Positions 1,528 through 62,097 of a stretch of DNA of 64,000 bases are shown here, one piece after another. The translations under genes and the position numbers were made by a program. The stretch is from Callorhinchus milii (lineage: Eukaryota): the NCBI RefSeq assembly GCF_018977255.1, contig NW_024704742.1, positions 24,616,001 through 24,680,000 of the forward strand. The letters run 5' to 3'. The notes under the pieces are model-generated. The model did no database searches and was not told the origin of the DNA. It was given only the letters and a program-made list of their open reading frames with translations. How positions within the stretch are numbered: position 1 is the first letter of the stretch; the number at the start of each line of letters is the position of its first letter.

Positions 1528-2356
1528 GGTCTGTCATCAGTAGTACTGCAGATTAACACCAGTTCCTATTTCCAAACACTGCTGCTACAGTTGCATAATT
1601 ATTTGAAACCCAGACAATATTTTCTCATCTATAAAGTACTGAAGATTTTGTTTACTGATGTGCTCAAACAAAGCAATCTCTTATTCAGATGCTGGAAATC
1701 AGATCAACTTAATACCACATGCACTGAAGGAAATCACCCGAGATTTTCGTATATGAATAAAGGCTGTGGCGTCATTTTGATTGAGCAGGACTCGCTGCTA
1801 GTGTTACCACTTCAACATCGCTAATACGGAAAACTTTACGTTAGCCAAGAGTACACTGAAGAACCAACAAGGCATCTAGTTAAAACCTGGCATTTTGGTG
1901 ACATTACTTCTTCAATCCCTCTTTTTTTTGTTCTGCCAAAATACTTGAATCCTTCGATTTAAAGCGTCACCCTTGAAAAAATTGGCAAACTATTTTTCTT
2001 ACCAATTTAGAAAGTAAAGTATTTAGAAAGCCAAAGCAATATATATGTATATACAGACAGAATATAAAGGATTGAGTGAAATAAATTCAATAAAAGCAGA
2101 AAATGAAATACGATCGTAACTGTTGGGTCTTTTCGTCTGCAGGACCAACAGGAACTGAGTGGAAAGAATGCCAACCTCCTGTGTGCCCACTTCAGGTCCC
2201 GTCAATAAGCCAGGCTGCCTGGTCTGTCGTCAGCATTACTGCAGATCAACACCAGTTCCTATTTCCAAACACTGCTGCTACAGTTGCATAATTATTTGAA
2301 ACCCAGACATATTTTCTCATCTACAAAGTACTGAAGATTTTTTTTACTGATATGCT

Positions 2357-3027
2357 CAAACAAACAAGCAAACAAACAAAATTACATTCGTATAATGCCT
2401 TTCATGTCGGGAGGACGTCTCAAGGCGCTAGACAATCAGCTTTTTGGAACCGAGCTGGGGGTCGGGATTAAAGGGATTGGGGGTGGGAGGGCAGGGGATG
2501 GTGGGCAGGGGTCTTGAGACGGATCATTGAGGCAAAAAGGGGCGATGCGGATGGACTGTGGGACAGAGTTACAGAGGACGGGGGCAGAGTGGCAAAAGGC
2601 CCGCCTGCCAATGGTGGGACAGACAAGGCGGGACGTGATGCAGGCCTGAGCCCGCTGAGCGGAGGGACTGTCTAGGTTGGTAGGGGGTTAGGAGGTTGCA
2701 GGGGTAGGGGGGAAGCAAAGCCATGCAGGGCTTTGAAAGTGAGAACCAGGATCTTGAATTGTATCCTCTGTGTGATGGGAAGTCAGTGTAGTTGGGCAAG
2801 GATGCGGGTGATAGGGTCGCGGAGCCTAGTGCGGGAGAGGACATGGGTTGTGGTGTGAGACAGTGGCAGAGCTGAGCGATGTTGTGGAGGTGGGGAAAGC
2901 GGAGCAGTCATGTCAGGGATGTGGGGTATGAAGGAGAGTTCAAGGTCCATGAAGGGAGATTCTGTCAGCGTCCGAGGGATGGCGATGCTGACGGCAGCCA
3001 AGAGGAGTGCCTCAGTCTTGTTGACAT
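2357..3027 (-). mobile_element. 5'-truncated L2 LINE inserted in the final codons of TLR2-A
   Basis: Begins with the (N)VNKTEALL segment, contains ELSFIPHI and LSRTRLRDPIT remnants, ends in the L2 tail gcgccttgagacgtcctcccgacatgaaagg...(ttgt)n. Confidence 0.9.
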
Positions 3028-5396
3028 CCTATGTTTTCCTCACCTTTTAATGCTACTTTTAAGTTAAACCAGAAGATTTTCTGTTCTACTTCATCCTCAG
3101 GCCATTCCAAATAGGTTTTTGTGTTCATCAGTTTCCTAAGCTTACAGAATCGCTGAGGAATGGTTTCCTTTGGGATTGGCTCCAACAGAACAAGAATGGC
3201 GGTGTCATTATTCTCATCAAACAGACGGAAATGAGAATAGTCCAGCTCGTACTTGCACCACTCGCTTTGGACAAAGTGTTGAGACAAGACAAACAGGGTC
3301 TTTCTGCTCTTCTCAATGGACTCAATGATGTTGTCAATTATCCACTTCCCTGGGATGAAATCGCGCTTATGAAGACAGAGTGTCACTGGTGGATGGGTAT
3401 TTTCTAATTCCCTCAGCAAGACGTTTTCCACCCACTCAGAATCCATCTCGCTGTAAGAAACAAATGCGTCGTAGAAAATATTATTATTCCTCACTTTCTT
3501 TGGCTTCCTTTTTGCCTGGAGCCACGCCCAGGTCATTTGGATGTACCAGATCCCGTGATACTTGTAGCACAATAGTCCCACAATAGCTATTGGCAAACAC
3601 AAAGCCACACACGACAAGGTGACAGAGAGTGTTGTGTGACAGTCAAAGAAAGAGCGCTTGGTATTTTTCACAATCATTCGCTTGACAACTAAAGGTGAAT
3701 CACAAATGTAGTTTTCCGGCCAGTTCAGCAGTTGTATTGAGTGGGTTAGGTATTTGTTTATATAGGTCAAGAATTCACAGGAACAGATGTAATGGTTCTT
3801 TCCAGCATCCAATGTTGTCAACTTATCGAATGTCGTGATTTCATCACTGGACATAGAGATGAGATTATTCCCACTGATCATCAGAATCTTCACGTTTGGT
3901 AGATAGCCACCGCCTGGTAAATACATCAGCTTGTTATTGGACACATTTAGTTCTCTGAGAGAAGGAAGGTGGGTAGTGAATGTCCTTATGTTATTGTTGC
4001 TTAAATCCAACACCTCGATATTTGGAGGGATGCACTGTGATATAGTACTTAATTGACTGCCTGAAAGGTTTAGAAATTGAAGAGTTTTTGACCATACACA
4101 AGAATCAACATCACTTAATGTATTCTGGCTTAAATCGAGGTGCGTCAGGTGGGTAATGTTAGATAAAATCGGGCTAATTTTCTTGAGAGAATGCAACTTA
4201 TTCTTTCTCAGAATAAGGTACATCAGGGAAGACCAGGAGTTCTCACAAACCATTTCTTTCATCATTAAATCAGTGAGCAAATTCTCCCTTAAATCAAGAT
4301 ACTCCAATCTTTGAAAATGTTGGGATATACCACATGGCATCATGAACAAGTTCAAGTTTGTCAACCTAGCTGTTCTAACATGGGATATCAAGCCATGAAG
4401 GAACGAAAGATCAAAAAATAAATAAAACTGTTTTATGGATATATGTCTGATTGTCAGTGAAATAAGTGATTCACATGTCATATCTTTAACTTTGTGCCAT
4501 TCTCCTCTTCCTGAAAATGCACAATTTTCTGCAACTAGTTCAGATATTCCACTGTCTCTTATATTTTTTAGTAAAACATATATTGTATTGTCACTCAGAG
4601 AACTATTTCTGAAGGTATATTTCTTCACTGATGAATTATTTGGCAATGAAAATAATTGAGTATCACTGGAACTCAGATATTCTAAGTCTCTCAGTTCAAC
4701 ATGGGTGGTGGCTGGTGCTAAATCCCAGATAATCCGTTGAACTAAGGACTGTTTTTTTTGGAATGGGTCATGTAAATTCATAGTGGCATGGCTTACATTT
4801 TGGAAAGAACTGAAACTTCTGTCTTCGTATGATTCTAATTTGTTTCCCAGTAAAATAAAGTCATCGAGATGTGAAATTCCTTCAAAGTCATCTTTCTTTA
4901 GATTAGACAAGAAAGCGTTTCCAACTTTTAACCACCGGAGGCTTTCCAGATGTGAGAAAAGTCTGCCTGGTCCCAGGTTTCTGTATTTATTCCCTGAAAG
5001 ATCCAGGTGTTGTAATTTGGAAAGATGCAGAAACCAAGCTGGTGAGAGTTGGATCAAGGAGTTATTGGACAAATCAAGGTATTCTAGGACCACGTTGCTC
5101 TTAAATGCCTGGTCATCAATAGACTGTATTTCATTTGATTGTAGCATAAGTACTTTGAGTTTAATATGCTTAGTGAGATCAGTTTCCTTGATGTGCGTTA
5201 TGAAGTTGTAGGAGAGGTTCAATCTTGAGACTTTCTCCAACACACGTGGAATAGTCACTAAGTTCATTGAAGAGCAGTTACAGAAGTTGCTGGAGTCACA
5301 TTTTTGACAGCTGTCTGCCTCTGAGCGAGCAATGTCCAGGTAAACACATGCAGCAGCAAGCAGCGTCCACACACTGACACCTCTCATGGTTCTCAT
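3012..5396 (-). CDS. TLR2: Toll-like receptor 2, paralogue A (794 aa, single coding exon; last residues CQQD* derive from an L2 LINE)
   Basis: Signal peptide, Cys-rich LRRNT, LxxLxLxxN repeats, TLR2-type QFYLFFDLS and FMMPC motifs, LRRCT, TM helix, TIR domain (YDAFVSYS, HKRDFIPGKW, SEWCKYELD, YLEWP). Acceptor tttcag|acacgtgtgaATG, exon starts at 5406. Confidence 0.96.
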   Translation of the reverse strand: MRTMRGVSVWTLLAAACVYLDIARSEADSCQKCDSSNFCNCSSMNLVTIPRVLEKVSRLNLSYNFITHIKETDLTKHIKLKVLMLQSNEIQSIDDQAFKSNVVLEYLDLSNNSLIQLSPAWFLHLSKLQHLDLSGNKYRNLGPGRLFSHLESLRWLKVGNAFLSNLKKDDFEGISHLDDFILLGNKLESYEDRSFSSFQNVSHATMNLHDPFQKKQSLVQRIIWDLAPATTHVELRDLEYLSSSDTQLFSLPNNSSVKKYTFRNSSLSDNTIYVLLKNIRDSGISELVAENCAFSGRGEWHKVKDMTCESLISLTIRHISIKQFYLFFDLSFLHGLISHVRTARLTNLNLFMMPCGISQHFQRLEYLDLRENLLTDLMMKEMVCENSWSSLMYLILRKNKLHSLKKISPILSNITHLTHLDLSQNTLSDVDSCVWSKTLQFLNLSGSQLSTISQCIPPNIEVLDLSNNNIRTFTTHLPSLRELNVSNNKLMYLPGGGYLPNVKILMISGNNLISMSSDEITTFDKLTTLDAGKNHYICSCEFLTYINKYLTHSIQLLNWPENYICDSPLVVKRMIVKNTKRSFFDCHTTLSVTLSCVALCLPIAIVGLLCYKYHGIWYIQMTWAWLQAKRKPKKVRNNNIFYDAFVSYSEMDSEWVENVLLRELENTHPPVTLCLHKRDFIPGKWIIDNIIESIEKSRKTLFVLSQHFVQSEWCKYELDYSHFRLFDENNDTAILVLLEPIPKETIPQRFCKLRKLMNTKTYLEWPEDEVEQKIFWFNLKVALKGEENIGCQQD

Positions 5397-5799
5397 TCAC
5401 ACGTGTCTGAAATAGAAATATAAAACATTTAATTGCAATTGACAACTGGGGTCATAGAAAGCAACACTGTTAGTGAACTCTTTCAGAGAATTAAATGCCC
5501 TTGCTTGGGTTGATCCTCTTCATAACTTTCACACATTAGAATGAAAAAAGCACCCTTTTGACCTCCTCTCATCTCCTTACCTGTATATATTCTCAGAACA
5601 ATCACCTCAGTTTGTGTTCCAAGGATCATGCTAATAAATTGCCAGTTAGTTTCTGGAATCGAACCTGACTCCCAAGTCTGGGGTAGAGTTGGTGGTATTC
5701 CTGTTTTGGTATCAAATCGGTGGCATGGCTTACATGATCCTCAACTGGATCAAATCAGCTCAGTAGCAAGTGCAAAAAGAATAGATGTCCTTAAGGTCA

Positions 5800-6138: not shown

Positions 6139-6620
6139 AGTCGCCAACCAGCGAGCGGAGGGATGGTCGCCAACCAGCGAGGGGCAGGGATGGTTGCCAG
6201 CCAGTGAGGGGCAGGGACGGTCGCCAGCCAGCAAGGGGCAGGTATAGTCGCTAGCCAGCGAGGGGCAGGTATAGTCGCTAGCCAGCGAGGGGCAGGTATA
6301 GTCGCTAGCCAGCGAGGGGCAGGTATAGTCGTTAGCCAGCGAGGGGCAGGTATAGTCGCTAGCCAGCGAGGGGCAGGGATGGTCGCCAGCCAACAAGGGG
6401 CAGGGATAGTTGCTAGCCAGCGAGGGCAGGGATGGTCGCCAGCCAGTGAGGGGCATGGATGGTCGCCAACCAGTGAGGGGCAGGGATAGTCGCTAGCCAG
6501 TGAGGGGCGGGGATGGTTGCCAGCCAGCAAGGGGCAGGGATGGTTACTAACTAGCGAGGGGCAGGGACGGTCGCCAACTAGCGAAGGGCAGGGACGGTCG
6601 CCAGCCAGCGAGGGGCAGGG
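6139..6620. repeat. GC-rich minisatellite, 27-bp unit (GGTATAGTCGCTAGCCAGCGAGGGGCA and variants), ~18 copies
   Basis: Direct reading; 9-aa periodicity in the overlapping ORFs. Confidence 0.93.
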
Positions 6621-24665: not shown

Positions 24666-25213
24666 ACAACAACAACAACAACAAGATTCCATTTATAAAG
24701 CGCCTTTCACGTCAGGAGGACGTCCCAAGGCGCTGCACAGTTGGGTCATGACCCGAGCAGGGGGGAAATGGTCAGGGTGAGGGGAGGGAAGGGAGGGAGA
24801 GAGGAGGGGGGAAATGGTCAGGGTGAGGGGAGGGAAGGGAGGGAGCGAGGAGGGGGAAGAGAGTCGAGAGGGGAGCTGAAGGCACGGTCAAAGAGAAAGG
24901 TTTTGAGACCGGCCTTGAAGGAGGAAAGGGAGGAAGCGGCGAAGGCACTGGGGGATGGAGTTCCAGAGCCTGGGGGCTGAGAGGCTGAAGGCCCGACCAC
25001 TGATGGTAGGGCGGTTGGCGCGGGGGACATGGAGCAGACCGGAGCCAGAGGAACGGAGGGTACGGGCAGGTAGGTAGGGGGATAGTAGGTTGGAGAGGTA
25101 GGAGGGAGCGAGGCCGTGAATGGCCTTGTAGGTGAGGATGAGGATCTTGAAATCAATCCTCTGGGGGATGGGGAGCCAGTGGAGGCGAGCGAGGGTGGGA
25201 GTGATGTGGTCCC
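24666..25213 (-). mobile_element. Young 5'-truncated L2
   Basis: Near-identical to 58094-58611 and 61402-62097; (caa)n tail. Confidence 0.92.
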
Positions 25214-26322
25214 GACCACAACCCTACCTGAGAGAGATTCTTAAATTAGTCCAGAGTCTTAGCTTCAACCACCTTTGGTAACCAGTTCGAGTCATCGATT
25301 GCCCCTTGTGTAAACAAATACTTCCTGAGTTCCGTGTCAGAATTGCTATAATAATAATACCTCCACAAGTATGTGGAGTCCTGTAGCTTAGTGGTTAGAG
25401 CTCTTGCCTCACAAGTGAGAGACCTGGGTTCGATTCTCGGAAGGATGAAATGTTGAGCAAGTTTCCTTACTGCACACGCCTCTGTTTACGCAGCAGTAAG
25501 TAATAATAATAATAATAATGATCCTTAAATTTGATATAGCCCTTTCCATTTCTTCTAGACGTCTCAAAGCGCTTCACAGAATATGCTGTAAAGTGAATTG
25601 ACTGTATATTTGTGGGCAAAACACGGCAGCCAATGGCGCACAGCAGTGTCCCACAAACAGTCATGGATTGAAAATGACCAATTTATTATTGTTTTGTTTT
25701 GGAGGGATTATTATTAGGCGTGTGGAGTAAGGAAACTTGCCCAAGGTTTTGCTCTGCCTGGAATTTAACCCAGGTGTCCCGGGATCCGTTACTGTAAAGC
25801 GCTCTAAGACGCCGTCCGGCATGGAGGGCGCTATATAAATCCAAGTTGTTGTTGTGGTTGTTGTTGTTGCTTGCAAGGCGAGTGCTCAAACCACTGAGCT
25901 GCAGAACTCCTCTACAGAACAGCTACAGTCAATTCACTCTACAATATATTCTGTGAAGCGCTTTGAGATGTCTAGAAGAAATGGAAAGCGCTATATCAAA
26001 TTTAAGGATCATTATTATTATTATTATTATTATTACTTACTGCTGCGTAAACAGAGGCGTGTGCAGTAAGGAAACTTGCTCAACATTTCATCCTTCCGAG
26101 AATCGAACCCAGGTCTCTCACTTGTGAGGCAAGAGCTCTAACCACTAAGCTACAGGACTCCACATACTTGTGGAGGTATTATTATTATAGCAATTCTGAC
26201 ACGGAACTCAGGAAGTATTTGTTTACACAAGGGGCAATCGATGACTCGAACTGGTTACCCAAGGTGGTTGAAGCTAAGACTCTGGACTAATTTAAGAATC
26301 TCTCTCAGGTAGGGTTGTGGTC
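25214..26322. repeat. Inverted duplication, arms 25214-25606 and 25924-26322
   Basis: Reverse-complement match of ~395 bp including non-repeat-looking sequence and two SINE halves. Confidence 0.95.
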
Positions 26323-27501: not shown

Positions 27502-28473
27502 TAATGGTCACAGAAGAGGGGGAGGGGGAGGGGGAGGGGGGGTGGCGAGGGATAAATTCTATAAATTCTAGAAATTTGATTTGCAAATTCATGTCTCTGT
27601 GATTTTTGTGAACTGTCAAACCTCTCACCAAAGTCTTGCACCAACCAAAAGCTGCTTCTATAAAGAAGTCAAGGCTGTTGCTATTATGTTGTGGTTTGGC
27701 AAGTTCTGTAAAGATTCAGTTTCATGTAATTTTCTTACTGTCAGTTCTGCAAGGACACTAATGTAGATAACTGAAGAGTAAGCAAGTATCATTTTCCAGT
27801 AATACTTATTGTTTTTTGCGCTCTGGGATGTCACCCTGCGTATATATAATATACTCTGTATAAATGCAAATTGTTGTTATTTGCGCAGTAATCCCGAAAC
27901 AAAGCTACGCAACCTTGATATGGTTCAGTAGTCCCTGTACTGCTATTATTGGCTTTACTTTTTGTGAGTTGAGACTCCATCTTTGTCCTGCTCATTTCCT
28001 ACAGACGGTTGACTGTAAGCAGTTTGCACTGAGATAATCTGCCAATTATTGATTACATTTGCTTCAGAAAATCAAATCAAATGAACTTTACGCTTACAAT
28101 TTTATTGTCTTTTGAACGGAAAGCATCAAAACCATAATTTGTGGAACTTGATACTGAAATCTCCGCAGGTAAGAATACTGTTTTAAGTAACTCAAAGAGA
28201 ATATGTTTGTTTCCACTTGCTTTGTATTTCTTATGGAATAGGAGTTAGGTTCCATGAGTGAGGGGAACTAAATTACACAGTTGAACAATTAATGAGGTTT
28301 ACAAGGACTAAAAAAAACCTAAATATGTTATTTTGCAGTAGTTAACAACTAAAGGAAGTTTCATCTCTCAAAATGTTTTCAAACCTTTAGTCTTAAAATA
28401 GAAGCATTTCAGGGTTGAAAACACAGGTGCGCAATCTGAAGTGACGCTTTTGAGAATAATTAATGATGTATAG

Positions 28474-28847
28474 CAATAATAATAATCCTTGCATTTGATA
28501 TAGCCCCTTATCACATCTTCAAGACGTCTCAAAACGCTTCACAGAACATACTGTAAATTTAATGGACTGTATATTTTGTGGACAAAAAGCGGCATCCAAT
28601 TGTGCACAGCAGTGTTCCACAAACAGTCTTGGATTGAGTGACCAAATTATTATTTTTTTAAGGAATGATTAACCCCTGTAAAAGTGATCCGCCAATTGAC
28701 TAACAACCGGGTACCTACTTACTGTTATGTAAACAGAGACGCATGCAGTAAGGAAACTTGCCCACGGTTTTGCCCTGCTGGGAATCAAACCCAGGCCTCT
28801 CGCTTGCGAGGCGAGTGTTCTAACTACTAAGCTACAGGACTCCACAT
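28474..28847 (-). mobile_element. Full-length tRNA-derived Deu-type SINE
   Basis: Reverse complement of the SINE family at 11284. Confidence 0.87.
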
Positions 28848-29752
28848 GATAGTTACTATGGGATCTAAATGAGATGCATTTTAGAAGAAGCGAAGTAGAC
28901 AGACAAGGAAGAAGGGAATATAAGGGAGGGAGTAAGGAGTGGATGGCGAATGGAGCATGTGGTGTACAAACACCAGGATGGACTAGCTGGGCCGAATGGC
29001 CTCTTTCCGTGCTGGAAATCAATGTAAAGTTTATTTAATATTTAGCTAGTAGTTTGTGGATAATCTTAGAATGTAAAGACCCCTTTGCACAGTTTTTCAC
29101 AATTTGTTTCACATTTTAGCACTTGAGATAATCCTTGCATTTGAAATAACGCTTTTCACGTCTTCTAGACGTCTCAAAGAGCTTCACAGAATATGCTGTA
29201 AAGTGAATTGACCGTATATTTGTGGGTGAGATTTACACTCATCCTCCTATCTCTACCCTCCCCTGTCCTCCACACCTCTTGCTCCCAACTCCCAGTTCGG
29301 GTTCAAATCCTTGACTGTCCAGCACCTTGGGACATCCTCCCGATGTGAAAGGTGCTATACAAATATAATTTCCCGTCGTTGTTTTGTATCCTTTTAGCAG
29401 ATACATATGTGGTTATGGTCATGAAATTTTCAGTCATATGGATAAATTGCAATGCTTTTTCTGGTAGATCTCTTAATAAGAAATGTGTAATTAGCAAATT
29501 TCAGTACGTTCACATGTAGAAATTTCATCTTGATTTACTCTGGATGGGAACAAATTAAGCCCCTAAAATTGAAGACTTCATGAGAAACCACCATAATTCC
29601 TACAAAGTACGCGGTCACTTTGCCTTAAATCCCGTGAAACACTTTGAGATATCCTGCTGATGTGACAAGAAATATATTAAATACAATGATTATTAATGAT
29701 GAGAGGGCCTTTATGAGGGTCTCAGGGGGTAGCCTTTTTCAAGGGCGGTAGA

Positions 29753-32063
29753 GGATCCTCCTTGTCTACCGCCCCCCCAAGCCCCCCCGGCTCCTTCCAC
29801 ACAGACATCTCCACGCTCCTCTCTTCCTGTTCCTCTGTTCCGAGCACCTACTCATAATGGGTGATTTCAACCTCCGCCTAAACTCCCCTTGCACCACTTC
29901 TGCTGATTTCACTGCCCTCCTCTCCTCCCTAAACCTAACCCTTCATATAAACTCACCCACCCACAACCGTTTTCATGCACTTGACCTCGTCATCACCCAT
30001 GGCCTTGACATTTCCGGCCTCAGCATAGTGGCCAAGGCCATCTCGGACCACTTTTTCATCTCCTTCTCCTCTCACATCCCTCTCTCCTCCACCAAGCCCT
30101 CAACCATCCTCTACCGCCCTTGGAAAAGACTAGCCCCTGAGATCCTCACAAAGGCCCTCTCTTCATCAAACATCCTATCCCTCTGGCCTTCCACCCGCGG
30201 AGATCTTGAAGCAGCCGTCCAGCTGATCCATGATCGCCTCTCCTCCACCTTTAACTCCCTCGTCCCCCTGAAATCCAGGACCTTCTCCAAATCCACCCGA
30301 TCCCACTGATACAACAACCATCTCCACTGCCAAAAAACCCAAACCTGTCTGCTTGAGCGCAGATGGCAGAAAACTGGCCTGACAGTTCACCACCAACTGT
30401 GGCTCGAGCATCTCCACAGCTACCGCTGTTCTTTGACATGTGCAAAAACGGCCTTCTACTCCAACATCATCTTGGAGGCTAAACACAACCCTAAAATCCT
30501 TTTTTCCACCACCCACTACCTCCTCCATGCCCCCCTCAGGCCTCCTCAATCTTCATATCAAATGCCAAGTGCGGGGAGGTCATGGACTTCTTTTCATCTA
30601 AAATACTTAACATCCACCAGGCAGCTTCATCCACCTGCCCCTTGTCACCCACCACCATGGCATCTCTGTCCCCCTCACCTTCCTCATCATCTGCTCCTAC
30701 CACCACTCCCATTCTACATTCTTTCCTCCCCATCTCTCCTCCTCCCTCTCACCCACCATCACCTCCATGAAACCCACTATCAGCTGCCTCGACCCTCCCC
30801 ACCAACTTACTAGTCACACAGCTCCCCCTTTTCTGCCCACTACTGGCTGACATCATCAACTAGTCCCTCTCCTCCGGATCAGTCCCTGCCCCCCTAAAAC
30901 TGCTGTCATCACCCCCCTCCTCAAAAAACCTTCCCTAGATCCCTCAAACCCCAGCCACTACCGCCCTATTTCTAATCTGCCCTTCCTCTCAAAAGTCCTA
31001 GAATGCATTGTTGCCAACCAACTTCGCGCACATCTCTCCTCCCACTCCCTCTTCGAACCCTTCCAGTCCGGTTTCCGCGCTGCCCACAGTACAAAGACTG
31101 CGCTTGTGAAAGTCACAAATGACATCCTCTCTATCTGTGACCAGGACTCCCTCTGCCTCCTTGTCCTCCTGGACCTCTCCGCCGCGGTCAACACAGTCGA
31201 TCACGCCATCCTCCTCCACCGCCTTTCCTCCGTCATCCACCTCAGTGGGACCGCACTCGCCTGGTTCGAGTCTTACCTCACGAACCGCCAGCAGCACATC
31301 TGCACAAACGGCTCCTCCTCCCACTCTCACCCGGTTACCTGCAGGGTACCCCAAGGATCCATCCTTGGCCCCCTCCTCTTTCTGATCTACATGCTCCCTC
31401 TTGGGGATTTCATCCGCAAACATGGGATAACACTTCCACATGTATGCAGATGACACCCAACTCTAGTTTTCCCCCTCTCTTTGTGACCCCCAGTCCCCTG
31501 ATGTTCTGTCAGCCTGCCTATCAGACCTCAGGGTGTGGATGAGCGCAAGTTTCCTTCAGCTGAACGTTGACAAGACGGAAGCCGTACTCTTGGCTCTCGT
31601 CAATGTCTAAAATCTCACGGCTCTCACCTCCTTCACCTACCGAACCTCCCCCTAAAACTCTCTGAACCAGTACGAAACCTAGGCATCAGGTTCGATCCCT
31701 AATTATCCTTCCTCCCCCACATCCGGTCCCTCACCAGCACCGCTTTCTTCCACCTCCGACGCATCACCCATCTCCGCCAATACCTCTCCCCAAAAGCCGC
31801 TGAAACCCTGGTCTATGCCTTTGTCACCTCTCGGATGGACTACTCTAATGCCCTTCTCACCGGCCTCCCCTCTACTACCATCCATAAAATCCAAATCATT
31901 CAAAACTCTGCTACCCGCATTCTCACCCGCACGAAAGTCCACTCCCCGATCACCCCAGTCCACGCCAGACTGCATTGGCTGCCTATCCCAGAGAGGATCG
32001 ATTTCAAGATCCTCACCCTTGTATTCAAGTTCCTGCACTCCTCTGCACCCCCCTACCCCTCTG
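29753..32063 (+). mobile_element. L2 LINE (second family), 5' part; resumes at 36262-36563
   Basis: MGDFNL, HALDL, FQSGF, PQGSILGP, LHWLPIPERIDFKIL; cut by a CR1 insertion. Confidence 0.92.
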
Positions 32064-32556
32064 TAGGGGTAATAGTGGATGATTTCAATCGCCACATAGA
32101 TTGGGAAAACCAAATCAGCAAAAGTAGGTTAGAAGAAGAGTTCATTGAGTGTATGAGAGATAACTTTCCAGAGCAACATGCCGAGGAACCAACTAGGGGA
32201 CAGACCATCCTGGATCTTGTTTTGTGTAATGAAACAAGGCTAGTCGGCAGTGTAGGTATTAAGACTCCTCTAGGGCAGAGTGATCACAATATGATTGAAT
32301 TCTGCATTAAGTTAGAGAGGGATATAATTAAATCCGAGGCAAGTATTCTGAATTTAAATAAGGCTAATTTTGTAGGTATGAGGAAAGATTTAGGTAAAAT
32401 AGACTGGAGAATAAGATTAAGAGGTAAAACTGTAGACCAACAGTGGCAAATATTTAAGGATGTAGTGCATAATTCTCAGCGGTCGCATATTCCCTTGCGG
32501 AATAAGAGTACCACAGGGAAAGCAATTCATCCGTGGCTAACTAGAGCAGTTAGGGA

Positions 32557-33476
32557 ACAACAACAACAACAAGATTCCATTTATAGAAGCGCCTTTCACG
32601 TCGGGAGGACGTCCCAAAGCGCTGGACAGTTGGGTCAGGATCCGAGCAGGGGGGAAATGGTCAGGGTGGGGGGAGGGAAGGGAGGGGGCAAGGAGGGGGT
32701 AGAGAGTTGAGAGGGGAGCTGAAGGCACGGTCAAAGAGATCGGCCTTGAAGGAGGAAAGGGAGGAGGCAAGGCGAAGGCACTGGGGGATAGAGTTCCAGA
32801 GCCTAGGGACTGAGAAGCTGAAGGCCCGGCCACCGATGGTAGGGCGGTTGGGGCGGGGGATGTGGAGCAGATCGGAGTCAGAGGAACGGAGGGTACGGGC
32901 AGGTAGATAGGGGGATAGTAGGTCGGAGAGGTAGGAGGGAGCGAGGCCGTGAATGGCCTTGTAGGTGAGGATGAGGATCTTGAATTCGATCCTCTGGGGG
33001 ATGGGGAGCCAGTGGAGGCGAGCGAGGGTGGGAGTGATGTGGTCCCGAAGCCTGGTGCGGGACAGTACACGAGCTGCAGAGTTCTGAATGACCTGCAGCT
33101 TGTGGAGGGAGGTGCCGGGAAGGCCGACGAGGAGAGAGTTCCCATAGTCCAGCCTTGAGGTGATAAAGGCGTGGACCAGAGTTTCAGCAGCGTGAGGGGT
33201 GAGGTAGTGCCGTAGTCTGGCGATGTTCCGGAGGTGATGGAAAGCGGTGCCACTTGTGGCGCGGATGTGGGGAAGAAAGGACAGCTCAGGGTCGAACAGA
33301 ACACCGAGGTTCCTGACCGGCTTTGAGAGGTGGAGAGTGCAGCCTTGGATGCTGATGCTGTCAGCGCCTGAGGTGCGGAGGCGCTGACGTGAGCCAATCA
33401 GGAGGGCCTCAGTTTTACGCATGTTGAGCTGAAGAAAGTTGTCTCTCGTCCAGGACTCGATGTCAGACAGGCAGGC
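32557..33476 (-). mobile_element. Young L2 3' portion inserted in CR1
   Basis: 253-aa open L2 ORF2 C-terminus; candidate TSD AGGGA at 32552-32556 and 33477-33481. Confidence 0.92.
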
Positions 33477-34812
33477 AGGGAAAGCATCAAATTAAAACAA
33501 AAAGCTTATAAAACTGCCAAAAAAAAGCAGCAAATCTGAAGATTGGGAGGCTTTTAGAAACCAACAAAAAAAACCTAAAAAACTCATTAAGAGCGAGAAA
33601 AAGGAACATTAAGTCAGATTGCAAAGGTTTTTACAAATACATTAAGAGGGATAGGCTAGTGAGGGTAAATGTAGGTCCACTTCAGTCAGAGACGGGAGAA
33701 GTTGTAATGGGGGATAAGGACATGGCAGAGTCCCTAAATTAGAAGACACAACCAATCTGCCAACAATAGGGATGCACCAAGGGGATAAGGACAGGGAGCA
33801 ACTTAGGGAAATTTTCATTGGTAGAGAATTGGTGCTAGGGAAACTGTTAGTACTAAAGAGTGACAAATCCCCTGGTCCGGACGGCTTGCATCCCAGGGTT
33901 TTAAAAGGGGTATCTTATGAGATAGTGGAGGCCTTGTGTCTGATTTTCCAAAATTCCTTGGATTCTGGAACAGTCCCCATGGATTGGAAGATTGCAAATG
34001 TCATACCACTATTTTAAAAAGGTGGAAAGGAAAGGATGGGAAACTATAGGCCAGTTAGTCTCACATCACTGATAGGAAAAATTTTAGAATCGTTGATTAA
34101 GGATGTGGTAGTGCGGTATTCAGGGGAGCACAATATAATTAGGCCAAGTCAGCATGGCTTTACAAAAGGGAAGTCATGTTTAACAAATTTCATAGAATTG
34201 TTTGAGGATATTTCGTGTAAACTAGATAAGGGTGAATCAGTGGTTGTGGCCTATTTAGACTTCCAGAAGGCATTCGATACGGTGCCACATAAAAGGTTAG
34301 TCCAAAAGATAGGGGCCCACGGAATTGGGGGGAGCATATTAACATGGATTGGGGAATGGTTAACGGGTAGGGACAAATAGTAGGGATAAACGGGTCCTTT
34401 TCAGATTGGCGGGATGTGACTAGTGGAGTGCCACAAGGATCAGTCCTTGGGCCTCAGCTATTTACCGTCTACATCACTGATCTAGATGAGGACATCGAAG
34501 TTAATATATCTAAATTCGCGGATGACACAAAACTAGGAGGAAGTGTCAACACAGAGGATGACATTAAAAAAATGCAGCGAGACATTGATAGGTTAGGTGA
34601 TTGGGCAGGTAGGTGGCAGATGAAGTATAATGTAGGGAAGTGCGAAGTCATCCACCTAGGTAGCAAAAACAGTAGAGCAGGTTATTTTTTAGAAGGGGAG
34701 AGATTGGAATGTGTTAGCGTCCAGAGGGACTTGGGTGTCCTTGTACACCAATCACAGAAAGTTAGTCTACAGGTGCAGCAGCAATTGGGAAGGCGAATGG
34801 TATGTTAGCATT

Positions 34813-35630
34813 CATAGAATCATAGAATTATAGAATCGTACAGCACAAAAAGAAACCATTCGGCCCATCGAGTTTGTGCCGGCTCTTTGATTAGAGCAAT
34901 TAATGTCAATCCCACTCCCCGGCCCTTTCCCCATAACCCGGGTTTCGTCCTCCTTAAATACCCGTCCACCGCGTTTTTAAAAGTAGTTATCAAATCGGCC
35001 TCCACCACCCTTTCAGGCAATACGTTCCAGATTCGAACAACTCGCTGCGTGAAAAAAATTCTTCTCACCTCCCCTCTGCTTCTTTTGGAGACTATTTTGA
35101 ATCTGTAACCTCGAGTCACCGACACACCCACCAGTGAAAACAGTTTTTCCCTTTCTACCCTATCATATCCCCTCATGATTTTGAAGACCTCTATTAGGTC
35201 TCCTCGTAACCTTCTCTGCTCCAATGAGAACAATCCCAGTCTCTCGTGCCTTTCCTCATAATCAAGGTCGCTCATTCCTGGTACCATCCTTGTAAATCTC
35301 CTCTGCACCCTTTCCAATGCTTTAACATCCTTCCTATAGTGTGGTGCCCAGAATTGGGTGCAGTATTCCAACTGAGGCCTAACCTGTGCTTTATATAGGT
35401 TAATCATAACCTCCTGACTCTTGTACTCTATGCCCCTGTTTATAAAGCCTAGTATCCCATATGCCCTTTTTACAGCTTTATCTACCTGTCCTGCCACCTT
35501 CAAGGATTCATTTACCTGCACCCCCAGGTCTCTCTGTTCTTTCACCCCCCTTAAGATTGTATCACCTAACCTATATTGCCTCCCCTCATTCTTTCTACCA
35601 AATTGCATTACCTCGCATTTCTCCACATTG
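34813..35630 (-). mobile_element. Young CR1 3' portion inserted antisense in CR1
   Basis: Open CR1 ORF2 C-terminus (KCEVMQFG...LEYCTQFWAP...FFTQRVV); tctatga-like tail repeats. Confidence 0.92.
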
Positions 35631-36261
35631 AAAGGATTATGAAAGGATTAGAGTATAAGAGTAGGGAAGTCTTGCTGCAACTGTATAGGACCCTGGTGAG
35701 ACCACACCTGGAATACTGTGTGCAGTTTTGTCTCCTTATTTAAGGAAGGATGTACTTGCCTTGGAGGGGGTGCAGCGTAGATTTACTAGGTTAGTACCAG
35801 GGATGAAGGGGATGAGTTACGAGGATAGGCTGACCAATTTGGGCCTATATTCTTTAGAATATAGAAGAATTAGAGGGGATCTTTTTAGAAACCTATAAGA
35901 TCATCAAAGGGCATGATAGAGTAGATAGTGGGAGATTGTTTCCCCTGGTTGGAGAAACTAAAACCAGGAGTCACAACTTTAAAATCAGAGGCCAGCCCTT
36001 TCGCACTGAGTTGAGGAAGAACTTCTTCACTCAAAGGGTGGTGAACGTATGGAACTCTCTACCCCAAAGGGCTGTTGATGCTCAGTCCTTGAACATATTC
36101 AAGACTGAGATAGATATATTTCTTATTGCAAAAGGGATTAAGGGATATGGGGATAAGGCAGGGTTATGGTATCAACTGGAGTTAGATTAGAAGATCAGCC
36201 ATGATTGAATGGCGGGGCAGGCTCGAAGGGCCGAATGGCCTACTCCTACATGTTATGTTAT

Positions 36262-36563
36262 GTTGCCTTCGTTCCTCCGGGTCTGGCCTCCTCCTCGTCC
36301 CCCGAGTCCTCCGCTCCACCCTCGGTCGCCGTGCCTTCAGACACTATGCCCCAAGGCTCTGGAACTGCCTTTCTCACTCCCTTTGCCTCGCTCCCTCCCT
36401 TCCTATTTTCAGGTCTCTGCTGAAGACCTTTCTTTTCGGCCGCGTCTTTGGTCACTTTCCTCCCCCTCCCCCTGGCTCGGCCCCGGGATCCGTTACTGTG
36501 AAGTGCTCTGAGATGCCATCCGGTGTGGAGGGCGCGATATAAATCCAAGTTGTTGTTGCTGTT
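36262..36563 (+). mobile_element. 3' end of the L2 begun at 29753
   Basis: Collinear with the uninterrupted copy at 27115-27501 after a ~25-bp gap. Confidence 0.87.
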
Positions 36564-37299
36564 ATTATTATGCTATATTCTTAGCTTTTCAAAGCATCTA
36601 GCATTGACAAATTGTTGAATGAAGTTCTCGAAAGAACTTACAAAAAACTGGCTTCAAAAATTAAGACTGAATTCATCAAATGGATTTTTGGAATGCCAAA
36701 TCCCAATTTCGCTAGGATTTAGTTTTGTAACCTGCTTGAAATCATCTTTTAAACTACAATTTAATCCGTCACTAATAATAATTCTTACATATGGCCATAA
36801 TCTGCCTTTGTAAAGAGCTCAACATGAAGAGTGCTGTATAAATGCAAGTTGTCGTTGTTGTACAGTGTTTATAAGTTATTTTTTATGACGAGAGCATTTT
36901 TACAGAGATTTAAAACACTTTATTTCACTGCTTCCAGAATCAAAGGAATTATCTGTGGTAACCTACCTTGCAACATGGCTAGGATAGCTTCTGCAGTAAT
37001 TAACTCACCAAAAGTTAAAACTGACTTTAACGTCAAATATTTACATGAACAATTTGGTTGAAAAATATTGGCTCATGTCATAATTGTATTTACTTGTTAG
37101 ATTAAATGTTTCTGCGTATCCAGTTCTTTCTTATATGATTCTATTGATCCTGGATAAAGCCATTTCACCCGCCTATGTCTCTCCTAAAGGCCAGATAGAG
37201 AAGCCTCAGCTGACTTTTTTTTACATAACAATAACTTGCATTTATATAGCGGTCTACACTCCAGATGGCGTCCAAGTGGTGGTTAACAATGGCGGAGCC

Positions 37300-38640
37300 C
37301 AATGCAATCTTAAAATGGGGAAAGAGGGGGCAAGGCGAAGGGACTGAGGGAGGGAGTTCCATAGTGCTGGGGGACACAGGGCAGGAGGATGAGGCTGCCA
37401 GGCAGATGTTTTCTATTTTGGAGGTAAGGAGATCCATGACCTCTTCACACTTGGCATTTGATGTAATGATTGAGGGTGCTAGAGGGGTGCACGGAGGACG
37501 TGGTGGGTGGAGTTTAGAGTTATTTTTGGCCTCCAGAATGATCTTTGAGTAATACACAGTTTTTGCTTGCGAGAGGGAGCGGCAGTAGGTGTGAAGGTGC
37601 TTGAGCCACAGATGGTGGTGAACTATGAGGCTGGTTTTTTGCCATTTGCTTCGAGTAACCAGGTTTGTGATTTTAGGGAATGAAGATGGCTGTTGTACCG
37701 GGGGAGCGGGAGCATTTGAAGACAGTCCTGGATTTCAGGGAGCCAAGGGAGTTCAAGGTGGAGGAGAGGCAATCATGGAGCAGCTTGATGGCTGCATCAG
37801 GATTGCTGCGGGTGGTAGGCCAGAGGAAGAGGAGGTCTGAGGATGGAAGGGCATTTGTGAGGGTCCCGGGGACTGTCTTTTCCATGGGTGGAAAAGGATG
37901 GTGGAGGGCTTGATGGAGGGAAAAGGGATGCAAGAAGAGAGGGAGACAAGGAAATGGGCTGAGAGGGCCTTGTTGGTGATTGATAGGCCAGAGATATCTA
38001 AGCTGTGGGTGATAACAAGGTCCAGGGGGTGGCCATGGTTATGGGTCAGGGAGTTCATATGGAGGATGAGATTTAGGGTGGAGAGGAGTGCAGTGAAGTC
38101 AAAGGAAGTGGGGCAGGAAGAGTTGAGATGAAGGCTGAAGTTGCCTGTGATGAGCATGCATTCAGTGCAGAGGGACAGGGATGAGAGGAGAGAGATGTCC
38201 ATGAGGAAGGAGCCAGGAAGTTTTGGGAGGAGCAGTGCACAAGGAGGAATTTGAAGGAGAGAGGAGGGATGGTGGAGGTGCTCAAAAGAAGGGAAACAGC
38301 CAGAGGAATAGTGGGGTAGATTAAGAGAGATTTGGGAGATGAGGGCCACACGACTGCCGAGATGGTTGGGGTGGGGTGGGGGTGACGGAGTTGCCGGAGG
38401 GCGGCCAGGTTTCCATGAGCCCTACGATGTCAACTTGCTCATCTAGGATGGGGTGGTGGATGGTGAGGGCTTTGTTTGAGAGGGAGCGAAGTTTTGGAGG
38501 GTGATGCTGGTGGGGGCGCTGATGGGATTGGATGCTGGGGAGAGGGTGTTGCAGATTGTGGGGGGAGAGCAACTGTGGGATTTGAGGGGGGAGGAGAGTT
38601 GTGAAGGGTGGGAGTGAGGGAAGGGTTTGCCTTATAGGTG
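37300..38640 (-). mobile_element. Degenerate L2 5' portion (APE region) in the intron upstream of TLR2-B
   Basis: LSNKALTIH, GLMETW, GHPLDLVIT, YYSKIILEAK remnants. Confidence 0.85.
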
Positions 38641-38810
38641 CGGGGGAGGGTTTTGCGTAATGAGTGGCTGCTCTGGGACAACCAACGATATGTGCCATGA
38701 TAAGCTTTGAAATGGCATCCTGATGTGAAAGGCATGATAACAAATATAAGCATTATTATTATTTGTAGGAAAATAAAAGCAATATTTTCTTTTATTTCAG
38801 ACACGTGTGA

Positions 38811-41192
38811 ATGAGAACCATGAGAGGTGTCAGTGTGTGGACGCTGCTTGCTGCTGCATGTGTTTACCTGGACATTGCTCGCTCAGAGGCAGACACCTGT
38901 CAAAGATGTGACTCCAGCAACTTCTGTAACTGCTCTTCAATGAACTTAGTGACTATTCCACGTGTGTTGGAGAAAGTCTCAAGATTGAACCTCTCCTACA
39001 ACTTCATAACGCACATCAAGGAAACTGATCTCACTAAGCATATTAAACTCAAAGTACTTATGCTACAATCAAATGAAATACAGTCTATTGATGACCAGGC
39101 ATTTAAGAGCAACGTGGTCCTAGAATACCTTGATTTGTCCAATAACTCCTTGATCCAACTCTCACCAGCTTGGTTTCTGCATCTTTCCAAATTACAACAC
39201 CTGGATCTTTCAGGGAATAAATACAGAAACCTGGGACCAGGCAGACTTTTCTCACATCTGGAAAGCCTCCGGTGGTTAAAAGTTGGAAACGCTTTCTTGT
39301 CTAATCTAAAGAAAGATGACTTTGAAGGAATTTCACATCTCGATGACTTTATTTTACTGGGAAACAAATTGGAATCATACGAGGACAGAAGTTTCAGTTC
39401 TTTCCAAAATGTAAGCCATGCCACTATGAATTTACATGACCCATTCCAAAAAAACCAGACCTTAGCTCAACGGATTATCTGGGATTTAGCACCAGCCACC
39501 ACCCATGTTGAACTGAGAGACTTAGAATATCTGAGTTCCAGTGATACTCAATTATTTTCATTGCCAAATAATTCATCAGTGAAGAAATATACCTTCAGAA
39601 ATAGTTCTCTGAGTGACAGTACAATATATGTTTTACTAAAAAATGGAAGAAACAGTGGAATATCTGAACTAGTTGCAGAAAATTGTGCATTTTCAGGAAG
39701 AGGAGAATGGCACAAAGTTAAAAATATGACATGTGAATCACTTATTTCACTGACAATCAGACATATATCCATAAAACAGTTTTATTTATTTTTTGATCTT
39801 TCGTTCCTTCATGGCTTGATATCCCATGTTAGAACAGCTAGGTTGACAAACTTGAACTTGTTCATGATGCCATGTGGTGTATCCAAAAGTTTTCAAAGAT
39901 TGGAGTATCTTGATTTAAGGGAGAATTTGCTCACTGATTTAATGATGAAAGAAATGGTTTGTGAGAACTCCTGGTCTTCTCTGACGTACCTTATTCTGAG
40001 AAAGAATAAGTTGCATTCTCTCAAGAAAATTAGCCCGATTTTATCTAACATTACCCACCTGATGCACCTCGATTTAAGCCAGAATACATTAAGTGATGTT
40101 GATTTTTGTGTATGGTCAAAAACTCTTCAATTTCTAAACCTTTCAGGCAGTCAATTAAGTACTATATCACAGTGCATCCCTCCAAATATCGAGGTGTTGG
40201 ATTTAAGCAACAATAACATAAGGACATTCACTACCCACCTTCCTTCTCTCAGAGAACTAAATGTGTCCAATAACAAGCTGATGTATTTACCAGGCGGTGG
40301 CTATCTACCAAACGTGAAGATTCTGATGATCAGTGGGAATAATCTCATCTCTATGTCCAGTGATGAAATCACGACATTCGATAAGTTGACAACATTGGAT
40401 GCTGGAAAGAACCATTACATCTGTTCCTGTGAATTCTTGACCTATATAAACAAATACCTAACCCACTCAATACAACTGCTGAACTGGCCGGAAAACTACA
40501 TTTGTGATTCACCTTTAGTTGTCAAGCGAATGATTGTGAAAAATACCAAGCGCTCTTTCTTTGACTGTCACACAACACTCTCTGTCACCTTGTCGTGTGT
40601 GGCTTTGTGTTTGCCAATAGCTATTGTGGGACTATTGTGCTACAAGTATCACGGGATCTGGTACATCCAAATGACCTGGGCGTGGCTCCAGGCAAAAAGG
40701 AAGCCAAAGAAAGTGAGGAATAATAATATTTTCTACGACGCATTTGTTTCTTACAGCGAGATGGATTCTGAGTGGGTGGAAAACTTCCTGCTGAGGGAAT
40801 TAGAAAATACCCATCCACCACTGATACTCTGTCTTCATAAGCGCGATTTCATCCCAGGGAAGTGGATAATTGACAACATCATTGAGTCCATTGAGAAGAG
40901 CAGAAAGACCCTGTTTGTCTTGTCTCAACACTTTGTCCAAAGCGAGTGGTGCAAGTACGAGCTGGACTATTCTCATTTCCGTCTGTTTGATGAGAATAAT
41001 GACACCGCCATTCTTGTTCTGTTGGAGCCAATCCCAAAGGAAACCATTCCTCAGCGATTCTGTAAGCTTAGGAAACTGATGAACACAAAAACCTATTTGG
41101 AATGGCCTGAGGATGAAGTAGAACAGCAAATCTTCTGGTTTAACTTAAAAGTAGCATTAAAAGGTGAGGAAAACATAAGAGGACATCAGTAA
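38811..41192 (+). CDS. TLR2: Toll-like receptor 2, paralogue B (793 aa, single coding exon)
   Basis: Same architecture and ~97% aa identity to copy A; acceptor tttcag|acacgtgtgaATG at 38800/38801; tail-to-tail with RNF175 as for human TLR2. Confidence 0.97.
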   Translation: MRTMRGVSVWTLLAAACVYLDIARSEADTCQRCDSSNFCNCSSMNLVTIPRVLEKVSRLNLSYNFITHIKETDLTKHIKLKVLMLQSNEIQSIDDQAFKSNVVLEYLDLSNNSLIQLSPAWFLHLSKLQHLDLSGNKYRNLGPGRLFSHLESLRWLKVGNAFLSNLKKDDFEGISHLDDFILLGNKLESYEDRSFSSFQNVSHATMNLHDPFQKNQTLAQRIIWDLAPATTHVELRDLEYLSSSDTQLFSLPNNSSVKKYTFRNSSLSDSTIYVLLKNGRNSGISELVAENCAFSGRGEWHKVKNMTCESLISLTIRHISIKQFYLFFDLSFLHGLISHVRTARLTNLNLFMMPCGVSKSFQRLEYLDLRENLLTDLMMKEMVCENSWSSLTYLILRKNKLHSLKKISPILSNITHLMHLDLSQNTLSDVDFCVWSKTLQFLNLSGSQLSTISQCIPPNIEVLDLSNNNIRTFTTHLPSLRELNVSNNKLMYLPGGGYLPNVKILMISGNNLISMSSDEITTFDKLTTLDAGKNHYICSCEFLTYINKYLTHSIQLLNWPENYICDSPLVVKRMIVKNTKRSFFDCHTTLSVTLSCVALCLPIAIVGLLCYKYHGIWYIQMTWAWLQAKRKPKKVRNNNIFYDAFVSYSEMDSEWVENFLLRELENTHPPLILCLHKRDFIPGKWIIDNIIESIEKSRKTLFVLSQHFVQSEWCKYELDYSHFRLFDENNDTAILVLLEPIPKETIPQRFCKLRKLMNTKTYLEWPEDEVEQQIFWFNLKVALKGEENIRGHQ

Positions 41193-41504
41193 AAAAAAAT
41201 CTTCAGTACTTCGGAGATGAGAAAAGACGTCTGGGTTTCAAATAATTTTGCAAGTGTGTCCATAGTGTTTGGAAATAGGAACTGGAGTGAATTTAAATGA
41301 ATGTTGCATGAGGTACACCTCTATCACACATTGTTATAAACTCACCTGAGTTCCTAATATTCAGTCCCGTGGATTGGTATTAATGATAAGAAGGCATGAA
41401 ACAAGAAATAACTATTTGAACCTTTAGGACCGCTGCCTCCTGAGACCAGGAACAACATCTCATCACTCTCTCTACCTGTTTCATCTGTTTATGGTCAATT
41501 CTGC

Positions 41505-58093: not shown

Positions 58094-58611
58094 TACTGGC
58101 TCCCCATCCCCCAGAGGATTGATTTCAAGATCCTCATCCTCACCTACAAGGCCATTCACGGCCTCGCTCCCTCCTACCTCTCCAACCTACTATCCCCCTA
58201 CCTACCTGCCCGTACCCTCCGTTCCTCTGGCTCCGGTCTGCTCCACGTCCCCCGCCCCAACCGCCCTACTATCGGTGGTCGGGCCTTCAGCCTCTCAGCC
58301 CCGAGGCTCTGGAACTCTATCCCCCAGTGCCTTCGCCACCTCCTCCCTTTCCTCCTTCAAGGCCGGTCTCAAAACCTTTCTCTTTGACCGTGCCTTCAGC
58401 TCCCCTCTCGACTCTCTTCCTCCTCCTCGCTCCCTCCCTTCCCTCCCCTCACCCTGACCATTTCCCCCTCCTCTCTCCCTTCCTTCCCTTCCCTCACCCT
58501 GACCATTTCCCCCTGCTCGGGTCATGACCCAACTCTGCAGCGCCTTGGGACGTCCTCCTGACGTGAAAGGCGCTCTATAAATGGAATCTTGTTGTTGTTG
58601 TTGTTGTTGTT
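58094..58611 (+). mobile_element. Young 5'-truncated L2 in RNF175 intron
   Basis: WLPIPQRIDFKIL...; (ttg)n tail. Confidence 0.92.
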
Positions 58612-61401: not shown

Positions 61402-62097
61402 ACAACAACAACAACAACAACAAGATTCCATTTATAAAGCGCCTTTCATGTCAGGAGGACGTCCCAAGGCGCTGCACAGTTGGGTCATGACCCGAGCAGG
61501 GGGAAATGGTCAGGGTGAGGGGAGGGAAGGGAGGGAGCGAGGAGGGGGAAATGGTCAGGGTGAGGGGAGGGAAGGGAGGGAGCGAGGAGGAGGAAGAGAG
61601 TCGAGAGGGGAGCTGAAGGCACGGTCAAAGAGAAAGGTTTTGAGACCGGCCTTGAAGGAGGAGAGGGAGGAAGCGGCGAAGGCACTGGGGATGGAGTTCC
61701 AGAGCCTCGGGGCTGAGAGGCTGAAGGCCCGGCCACCGATGGTAGGGCGGTTGGGGCGGGGGATGTGGAGCAGACCGGAGCCGGAGGAACGGAGGGTACG
61801 GGCAGGTAGGTAGGGGGATAGTAGGTCAGAGAGGTAGGAGGGAGCGAGGCCGTGAATGGCCTTGTAGGTGAGGATGAGGATCTTGAAATCAATCCTCTGG
61901 GGGATGGGGAGCCAGTGGAGGCGAGCGAGGGTGGGTGTGATGTGGTCCCGAAGCCTGGTGCGGGACAGTACACGAGCTGCAGAGTTCTGAATGACCTGCA
62001 GCTTGTGGAGGGAGGTGGCGGGAAGGCCGGCGAGGAGAGAGTTCCCATAGTCCAGCCTTGAGGTGACAAAGGCGTGGACCAGGGTTTCAGCAGCGTG
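61402..62097 (-). mobile_element. Young 5'-truncated L2 in RNF175 intron
   Basis: Near-identical reverse complement of 58094-58611, extended further 5'. Confidence 0.92.

Follow-up and report, generated by a model that had tools for sequence, protein, structure and literature searches.

TLR2 is a vertebrate sensor of bacterial lipopeptides, and what is known of the interplay of homogenisation and diversification in duplicated innate receptors comes mainly from birds and mammals. Here we describe a pair of TLR2 genes in a 64,000-nt stretch of the genome of the elephant shark, Callorhinchus milii (RefSeq assembly GCF_018977255.1, contig NW_024704742.1, positions 24,616,001 to 24,680,000 of the forward strand); the whole stretch is called the window below, and positions are counted from its first letter. 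The window carries two intact 2.4 kb open reading frames (ORFs), inverted, head to head and with ~33 kb between them:

3012..5396, minus strand: TLR2 copy A, single coding exon, 794 aa (protein P0002); recognised by its ORF and its leucine-rich repeat (LRR) and TIR domains
38811..41192, plus strand: TLR2 copy B, single coding exon, 793 aa (protein P0001); recognised by its ORF, its LRR and TIR domains and a spliced transcript contig

By sequence similarity the two genes are assigned to TLR2 (TLR1 subfamily) as inverted elephant shark paralogues. Pfam domains LRR_8 and TIR were found in both copies (2.1e-39 and 3e-22, respectively, in copy B). When copy B was compared with solved structures by phmmer (the copies are 97% identical), TLR2 ectodomains matched at 4e-106 to 2e-90, far ahead of TLR1 or TLR6 (1.7e-33 for TLR1); the matches included 5d3i_A (TLR2, 4.2e-106), 6nig_A (1.9e-100) and 2z7x_A (2.1e-99), with the mouse TLR2 ectodomain as the best solved relative. 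The top named protein relatives were all TLR2 (55–62% identity in cartilaginous fish, 44–46% in mammals), TLR1/6 appearing from E ~1e-99; some lower-ranked teleost matches were unnamed ‘hypothetical protein’ records, and other members of the 90% cluster that holds the window proteins are named Callorhinchus milii TLR2. The conserved pocket-entrance motifs FYLFFDL (residues 324–330) and FMMPC (351–355), present in both copies, align with human FYLFYDL and FLVPC. The AlphaFold2 model has an LRR solenoid, a helix at 588–612 and a TIR fold, with a mean predicted local distance difference test score of 78.6 (mostly 80–96 in the ectodomain). A genome search scoring the best candidates found no third TLR2-like copy, the next match being 36% identical.

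Gene conversion of the coding exons

The coding exons of both TLR2 copies have been homogenised by interlocus gene conversion. The following features document the contrast between the exons and their surroundings:

38790..41188, plus strand: high-identity tract, B arm (self-BLAST, 2399 bp, 98.75% identity, no gaps)
3019..5417, minus strand: high-identity tract, A arm, the self-BLAST partner of 38790–41188
28136..28168, plus strand: end (3′) of the non-coding exon that lies upstream of copy B; a GTAAGA donor comes next
41179..41288, plus strand: end of the copy B coding sequence (last 14 nt including the stop) and start of its 3′ untranslated region (3′UTR, ~96 nt)
2358..3029, minus strand: inserted DNA of ~670 bp in copy A after codon 789, giving a new tail GCQQD and stop
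2249..2357, minus strand: remnant, now displaced, of the former end of copy A (final codons, stop, start of the 3′UTR)
1552..1665, minus strand: second copy of the remnant, part of a ~690 bp unit duplicated downstream of copy A

Identity between A and B sets in ~27 nt ahead of the ATG, in the polypyrimidine tract and splice acceptor, and stops at codon 789; the two copies are identical over as much as 680 nt in a row, more than chance would give (P=0.005). Upstream of this boundary the introns and 5′ exons of the two genes are unalike. The intron of copy B (28169–38800, 10.6 kb) ends in TTTCAG, and a contig from another public run, X1, departs from the genome at this acceptor, its loose end matching the window once, at 28136–28165; X1 behaves as RNA, because the contig is spliced; none of the runs that contain the locus is recorded as RNA. 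(The other public runs are represented by contigs only, which are unphased and show presence only.) A second copy of the upstream exon was sought in the window and none was found, nor is there a counterpart near copy A; since no exon in the window for copy A matches it, the two copies probably have different promoters.

At the 3′ side homology is ended by the insert, which replaces the original last five codons of copy A (four residues and the stop) and part of which (2382–2853) resembles a repeat of the window (10650–10168, 69%). The original end of copy A lies displaced beyond it and shows 14 mismatches and one gap to copy B in 110 columns of local alignment; the unit that contains it has been duplicated in turn (1527–1672 vs 2220–2364, 94.5% identity by self-BLAST). 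The divergence of the remnant is 12.7%, against 0.8% at synonymous sites of the coding exons (Fisher P=3.4e-8). The flanks being far more diverged than the synonymous sites, the duplication is far more ancient than one would judge from the coding identity, the exon having been homogenised. An earlier reading of the window made without database searches (the sequence-only reading) had supposed that conversion acts on this pair, and the confinement of the tract to the interval from the acceptor to codon 789, together with the divergence of the remnant, bears this out.

An assembly or allelic artefact was rejected as the source of the two copies on account of their unlike flanks, their inverted orientation and the matching states in other C. 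milii protein records. Three further C. milii TLR2 proteins of the same cluster show the A-type or the B-type state at 19 of 19 differing sites (one is B-type and two are A-type with the additional changes T415I and A733T), and both A flanks and B flanks were seen in contigs of other public runs.

Differences between the two copies

We compared A and B codon by codon; they align ungapped as far as codon 789, and from codon 790 on the tails are different. The amino acid differences concentrate in one central block, codons 215–432, which we take to correspond roughly to LRR7–15:

39453..40106, plus strand: central block of copy B, codons 215–432; nonsynonymous differences (Nd) 15, synonymous differences (Sd) 1, dN/dS (omega) 4.0
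4101..4754, minus strand: central block of copy A, codons 215–432 (coordinates from the codon comparison)
39879..39890, plus strand: codons 357–360 of copy B, with I357V, Q359K and H360S; four base changes in 10 nt

All 13 central differences listed in the sequence-only reading are present in the exact comparison (K215N, S217T, V219A, N270S, I279G, D281N, D305N, I357V, Q359K, H360S, M392T, T418M and S432F, A/B), I279G (ATA/GGA) and H360S (CAT/AGT) being two-base changes as it had stated. They make up 13 of the 19 internal amino acid differences in 218 of 789 codons (27.6%); S29T, K32R, V659F, V671L, T672I and K773Q are the remaining six. Its count of about four synonymous differences was also right: codons 1–789 contain exactly four, at L187, E191, S390 and L660. 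The same reading had placed the differences around the FYLF and FLVP motifs; the stretch 306–356, which holds FYLF and F-M-M-P, is identical in A and B, with zero differences.

Variants within each copy were seen in other samples. The X1 contig is B-type at all paralogue sites but one and carries in addition I222L, F584S and one synonymous change. A contig of run X9 is B-type with N215T. Contigs of run X2 have A flanks, the 3′ flank of B, A733T and A letters interspersed with B letters; such a mosaic can arise from the short-word assembler itself, and these contigs were not taken as recombinant haplotypes.

Age and polarity of the central differences

Synonymous divergence is uniformly low (dS 0.0074 in the central block and 0.0084 elsewhere). 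The block has one synonymous difference in 137 synonymous sites, where ~17 would be expected had it been shielded from conversion like the 3′UTR remnant (P=4.9e-7). With elasmobranch sequences as outgroups, copy A is derived at 219, 281, 359, 659, 671 and 773, copy B at 32, 279, 418, 432 and 672, and both copies at 392. By these comparisons the central differences are recent and two-sided, with no old island shielded from conversion, because synonymous divergence is low throughout and the elasmobranch quartets described below have no central paralogue-specific sites.

Two more local origins of the differences were rejected. Small ancient islands at codons 215–219, 279–281 and 357–360 would be accompanied by synonymous differences, of which there are zero. 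Micro-conversion from a third TLR2-like donor was rejected as the source of the tight clusters given that the next genomic match, in a search scoring the best candidates only, is 36% identical.

TLR2 pairs in elasmobranchs

Twelve elasmobranch species have two TLR2 proteins each (isoform records P0127, P0135 and P0143 were left out of the comparison). Eleven of these pairs are 94.7–98.0% identical; the twelfth, from Pristiophorus, is 89.2% identical, due in part to N-terminal annotation differences. The paralogues group by species, and two old C-terminal tail types, IFWFNL... and NFWLSL..., are common to several shark orders and the sawfish. The tail types span alignment positions 773–794 (P0003–P0015, P0125–P0143), the rest of the proteins being homogenised per species; in catsharks and Mustelus the boundary of homogenisation apparently lies a few codons later (~780).

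Three quartets, each made of the pairs of two species, were analysed: Cetorhinus and Carcharodon, two Scyliorhinus species, and Hemiscyllium and Chiloscyllium. Before codon 773 they have 30, 22 and 26 informative sites, respectively, all of which group by species; from codon 773 on they have 13, 6 and 10, all of which group by paralogue type. The third possible grouping has zero informative sites in the three quartets. Trees built from the gene body and from the central block (both excluding Pristiophorus copy 2, which is partial) likewise pair the paralogues by species, except for the Chiloscyllium punctatum pair in the central tree. From the grouping by species in quartets and trees it follows that the elasmobranch central LRRs have been converted too and that their central differences are species-specific.

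When the 13 chondrichthyan pairs are pooled (positions 45–772), 88 of 165 differences are central, compared with 43–46% expected (P=0.002–0.02). Positions 356/357 differ in 6 of the 13 pairs (P=0.0003 under a uniform null).

Clustering and selection

Nei-Gojobori estimates for C. milii A vs B were as follows:

Whole gene: Nd 21, Sd 4, omega 1.39
Central block, codons 215–432: Nd 15, Sd 1, dN 0.0296, dS 0.0074, omega 4.0
Outside the central block: Nd 6, Sd 3, dN 0.0044, dS 0.0084, omega 0.53

Exact regional values thus agree with the sequence-only reading that the differences are mostly nonsynonymous and centrally concentrated. Against a uniform null the clustering is significant (scan permutation P=0.0057), and nonsynonymous change is 6.7-fold denser in the central block than elsewhere (Fisher P=3.4e-5). 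Some central concentration is to be expected, however. Among chondrichthyan orthologues the block holds 39% of the site variability on 28% of the length and, judged from these alignments, is the fastest-evolving part of chondrichthyan TLR2; the 19 differing sites have a mean variability of 1.22 bits vs 0.67 for all sites. The clustering is therefore only partly special, because the central region normally takes ~40–45% of amino acid change in TLR2. Weighted by site variability among the orthologues, the excess decreases and persists (13 of 19, binomial P=0.0095; scan P=0.028).

An omega of 0.3, typical of purifying selection, is rejected for the central block (P=6e-4). With gene-wide synonymous change as the yardstick, the P value against omega ≤1 is 0.0125 (0.029 once the choice of window is corrected for). 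The case for dN/dS above 1 in the block, i.e. for adaptive divergence, is thus borderline.

Structural placement of the central sites

The 13 sites were placed on human TLR2 by alignment and on the secondary structure given by the AlphaFold2 model. Chain numbering in 6nig_A equals human numbering, as cross-checked with residue names in PMC5312493 and PMC8818788. The equivalences are:

C. milii 215, 217, 219: human TLR2 Q209, I211, L213
C. milii 270: human TLR2 E264
C. milii 279: human TLR2 N274
C. milii 281: human TLR2 I276
C. milii 305: human TLR2 N300
C. milii 357: human TLR2 L355
C. milii 359: human TLR2 Q357
C. milii 360: human TLR2 H358
C. milii 392: human TLR2 Q390
C. milii 418: human TLR2 T416
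C. milii 432: human TLR2 T431

In the model, three convex-side helices (216–226, 269–279 and 355–360) account for eight of the 13 sites, which fall inside them or at their ends; 392 and 418 lie just before beta strands. Codons 357–360 fall in the last of these helices, a short one that follows the F-M-M-P-C motif.

The sequence-only reading had tied the sites to the lipopeptide pocket and the dimer interface. In the available part of a docking study on crystal structures, L355 of human TLR2 is listed among the lipid contacts (PMC5312493), and in that of another study N274 was used with L282 and F284 to centre the docking box on the pocket (PMC8818788); the available text of a third singles out K347, F349, L371, E375, Y376 and N379 as main residues of the TLR2 dimer interface (PMC9386714). 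Measured against these accounts, the pocket placement holds for site 357 (L355) and, more loosely, for site 279 (N274), and the interface placement is not supported, none of the 13 sites aligning with a main interface residue named there.

The differences at 215, 217 and 305 give copy B two predicted N-glycosylation sequons absent from copy A, N215-Q-T and N305-M-T:

39453–39461, plus strand: predicted copy B-only sequon, codons 215–217
39723–39731, plus strand: predicted copy B-only sequon, codons 305–307

The N215T variant of run X9 would abolish the first of these.

Interpretation and alternatives

Taken together, the data are probably best accounted for, in our moderately confident view, by old duplicates homogenised by conversion whose central differences are recent and whose residual central excess comes from diversifying selection. 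The two C. milii copies would be old duplicates whose single coding exon has been repeatedly overwritten by interlocus gene conversion; this repeated conversion would be why the coding sequences look young (dS ~0.008) in unalike surroundings. The 13 central differences would have arisen in both copies after the last homogenisation. Part of their excess would reflect the central LRRs being the least constrained part of TLR2, and the remainder most likely diversifying selection acting on the helices and loops of the convex side around the lipid pocket, and on glycans at the surface, the latter proposed because copy B gains two sequons. The pattern itself, the conversion and the recency of the differences are demonstrated by the comparisons above; selection, and any functional divergence of A and B, are inferred here from sequence comparison.

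Several observations weigh against this account. Tested within the block alone, omega >1 is not significant (P=0.12), and the evidence weakens further if each of the two tandem two-base changes was a single mutation. The central differences at 392 and 418 are CpG transitions, and at 418 the otherwise B-type X1 contig has the A letter, so that the site is perhaps polymorphic. The central block also holds 40.6–48.1% of the differences in deep chondrichthyan orthologue comparisons (25.6–53.5% across all 16 comparisons), and the 356/357 hotspot reaches only P=0.026–0.07 under rate-weighted nulls. Within-copy variants (from the runs and the T415I and A733T records) are 6 nonsynonymous vs 2 synonymous, with four of the six central, a pattern that fits weak constraint and diversifying selection equally. 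Just one of the 13 central sites (357) aligns with a reported lipid contact and none with the main interface residues, at which A and B are identical, as far as the available parts of the structural studies go. Finally, within the C. milii lineage itself it is the flank contrast that supports concerted evolution; a protein search found no second holocephalan TLR2.

Neutral or relaxed drift since the last homogenisation, with tolerant central LRRs, multi-nucleotide mutations, CpG hotspots and no functional divergence, would explain many of these points: the non-significant central omega, the share of the block among distant orthologues, the above-average variability of the 19 sites, the 6:2 ratio of within-copy variants, and the two CpG transitions and two tandem double changes among the sites. 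We consider drift possible, although on balance unlikely, since central nonsynonymous change exceeds gene-wide synonymous change even after scan correction, the central excess persists after rate weighting, and several changes hit positions that are invariant or nearly so in elasmobranchs (A219V, N281D, R392 to M/T, S432F and the radical I279G). The preferred account remains that the fast-evolving central LRRs have recently diverged anew after conversion, with a part played by positive selection for which the comparisons are suggestive but no proof.

The sequence-only reading had gone further and proposed that selection maintains two ligand or partner specificities against conversion. On this view long-standing selection would shield the central LRRs, as in bird TLR2A/TLR2B. 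Conversion does act on the C. milii pair, and differences in LRR7–15 between identical flanks do resemble the avian layout as given in the available part of that work (PMC3125219). The central block is nevertheless as young as the rest of the exon (1 synonymous difference vs ~17 expected), and its nucleotide divergence of 2.6% contrasts with the 56% identical codons of the avian central region in the same account. In elasmobranchs no site before codon 773 is of paralogue type, every informative one grouping by species as does the central tree, and omega >1 is only borderline in a region that is intrinsically the fastest-evolving. The proposal of maintained specificities is accordingly disfavoured as highly improbable. 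A duplication limited to the coding exon, very recent and without conversion, would suit the low and uniform dS and the originally single tail type of the C. milii copies, but is scarcely credible given the diverged remnant of the copy A 3′ end, the upstream exon and 10.6 kb intron of copy B without a counterpart at copy A, the identity boundary exactly at the splice acceptor and the recurrence of the same picture in 12 elasmobranch species.

A broader extension of the preferred account, which we regard as speculative and rather doubtful, is that cartilaginous-fish TLR2 pairs have cycled since before the shark–ray split, with repeated conversion of the whole ectodomain, followed each time by rapid re-divergence at the same few places. 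These places may be the pocket helix at 356/357 (presumably LRR12), the convex-side helices and the glycan sites. Permanent differences may be confined to the regulatory DNA and the final ~20 residues of the cytoplasmic part, and the C. milii pair may be one snapshot of the cycle. If so, the two genes would be kept for signalling or expression and not for ligand specificity.

Comparison with known systems

The nearest precedent is avian TLR2A/TLR2B. In the available part of the avian study (chicken, turkey and duck as well as zebra finch), conversion extends from the N-terminus to LRR8 and again from LRR15 to TIR, only 56% of the codons that specify conserved residues in the central region are identical, and differences and predicted positive selection are concentrated in the central ligand-binding LRRs (PMC3125219). 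The C. milii genes, too, are adjacent converted paralogues with differences concentrated in those repeats. By that account, however, the avian central region escapes conversion, is deeply diverged and groups by paralogue in trees, whereas in C. milii it is 2.6% diverged with one synonymous difference; what escapes conversion in cartilaginous fish is only the last ~5 codons (C. milii) or ~20 codons (elasmobranchs) and the untranslated parts.

Mammalian TLR1/TLR6, as described in the same available text (PMC3125219), are likewise tandem paralogues in which the C-terminal LRRs, transmembrane segment and TIR are converted and the ligand-binding LRRs differ. Conversion there runs from LRR16 to TIR only and the ligand-binding half is long diverged, unlike the C. 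milii exon, which is converted nearly in full. With human and mouse TLR2 in the TLR2–TLR1 and TLR2–TLR6 lipopeptide complexes (2z7x, 3a79 and 6nig) the C. milii proteins share architecture and motifs at ~45% identity; by alignment, the pocket and interface residues cited in the available parts of the structural literature appear identical in A and B except for the L355 equivalent.

According to the available part of a 2026 preprint, most sharks have two or three near-identical TLR2 copies (bioRxiv 10.64898/2026.03.23.713620). The C. milii pair shows the pattern of these elasmobranch duplicates, near-identical copies, and is unlike them (two old tail types from ~codon 773) in that its copies were originally of one tail type. 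The literature searched yielded no account of chondrichthyan TLR2 genes undergoing gene conversion; the term ‘gene conversion’ has 0 occurrences in the available text of that preprint on cartilaginous-fish TLRs and 0 in that of the whale-shark genome paper.

The C. milii pair and the 12 elasmobranch pairs add cartilaginous fish to the vertebrates whose TLR2 duplicates undergo gene conversion, and do so with a different regime, in which conversion takes in nearly all of the coding exon and differences persist only in the cytoplasmic tail and the untranslated parts. Coding identity is thus unsafe for dating TLR2 duplications in these fish, and central-LRR differences between young-looking paralogues should not be taken as stable specificities.

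Other features of the window and genome

Intact TLR1-family frames of 806–849 aa, 32–36% identical to TLR2, were found elsewhere in the genome (L003, L004, L005 and L006); on this similarity their products are possible heterodimer partners of TLR2. In two UniRef records of C. milii TLR2 (P0122 and P0124) the first ~28 residues are replaced by other N-termini, the exon being joined near codon 28, which suggests alternative or mis-predicted 5′ splicing.

Upstream of copy A lies a G+C-rich tandem array with a 27-bp unit in ~18 copies (6140–6620). Interspersed repeats crowd the spacer and the flanks of the two genes, among them three ~97% identical copies (24666–25215, 58095–58610 and 61402–61951) and the repeat regions 16312–16956 and 31835–32710, and they include ORF fragments with endonuclease–reverse-transcriptase domains of the long interspersed nuclear element (LINE) type.

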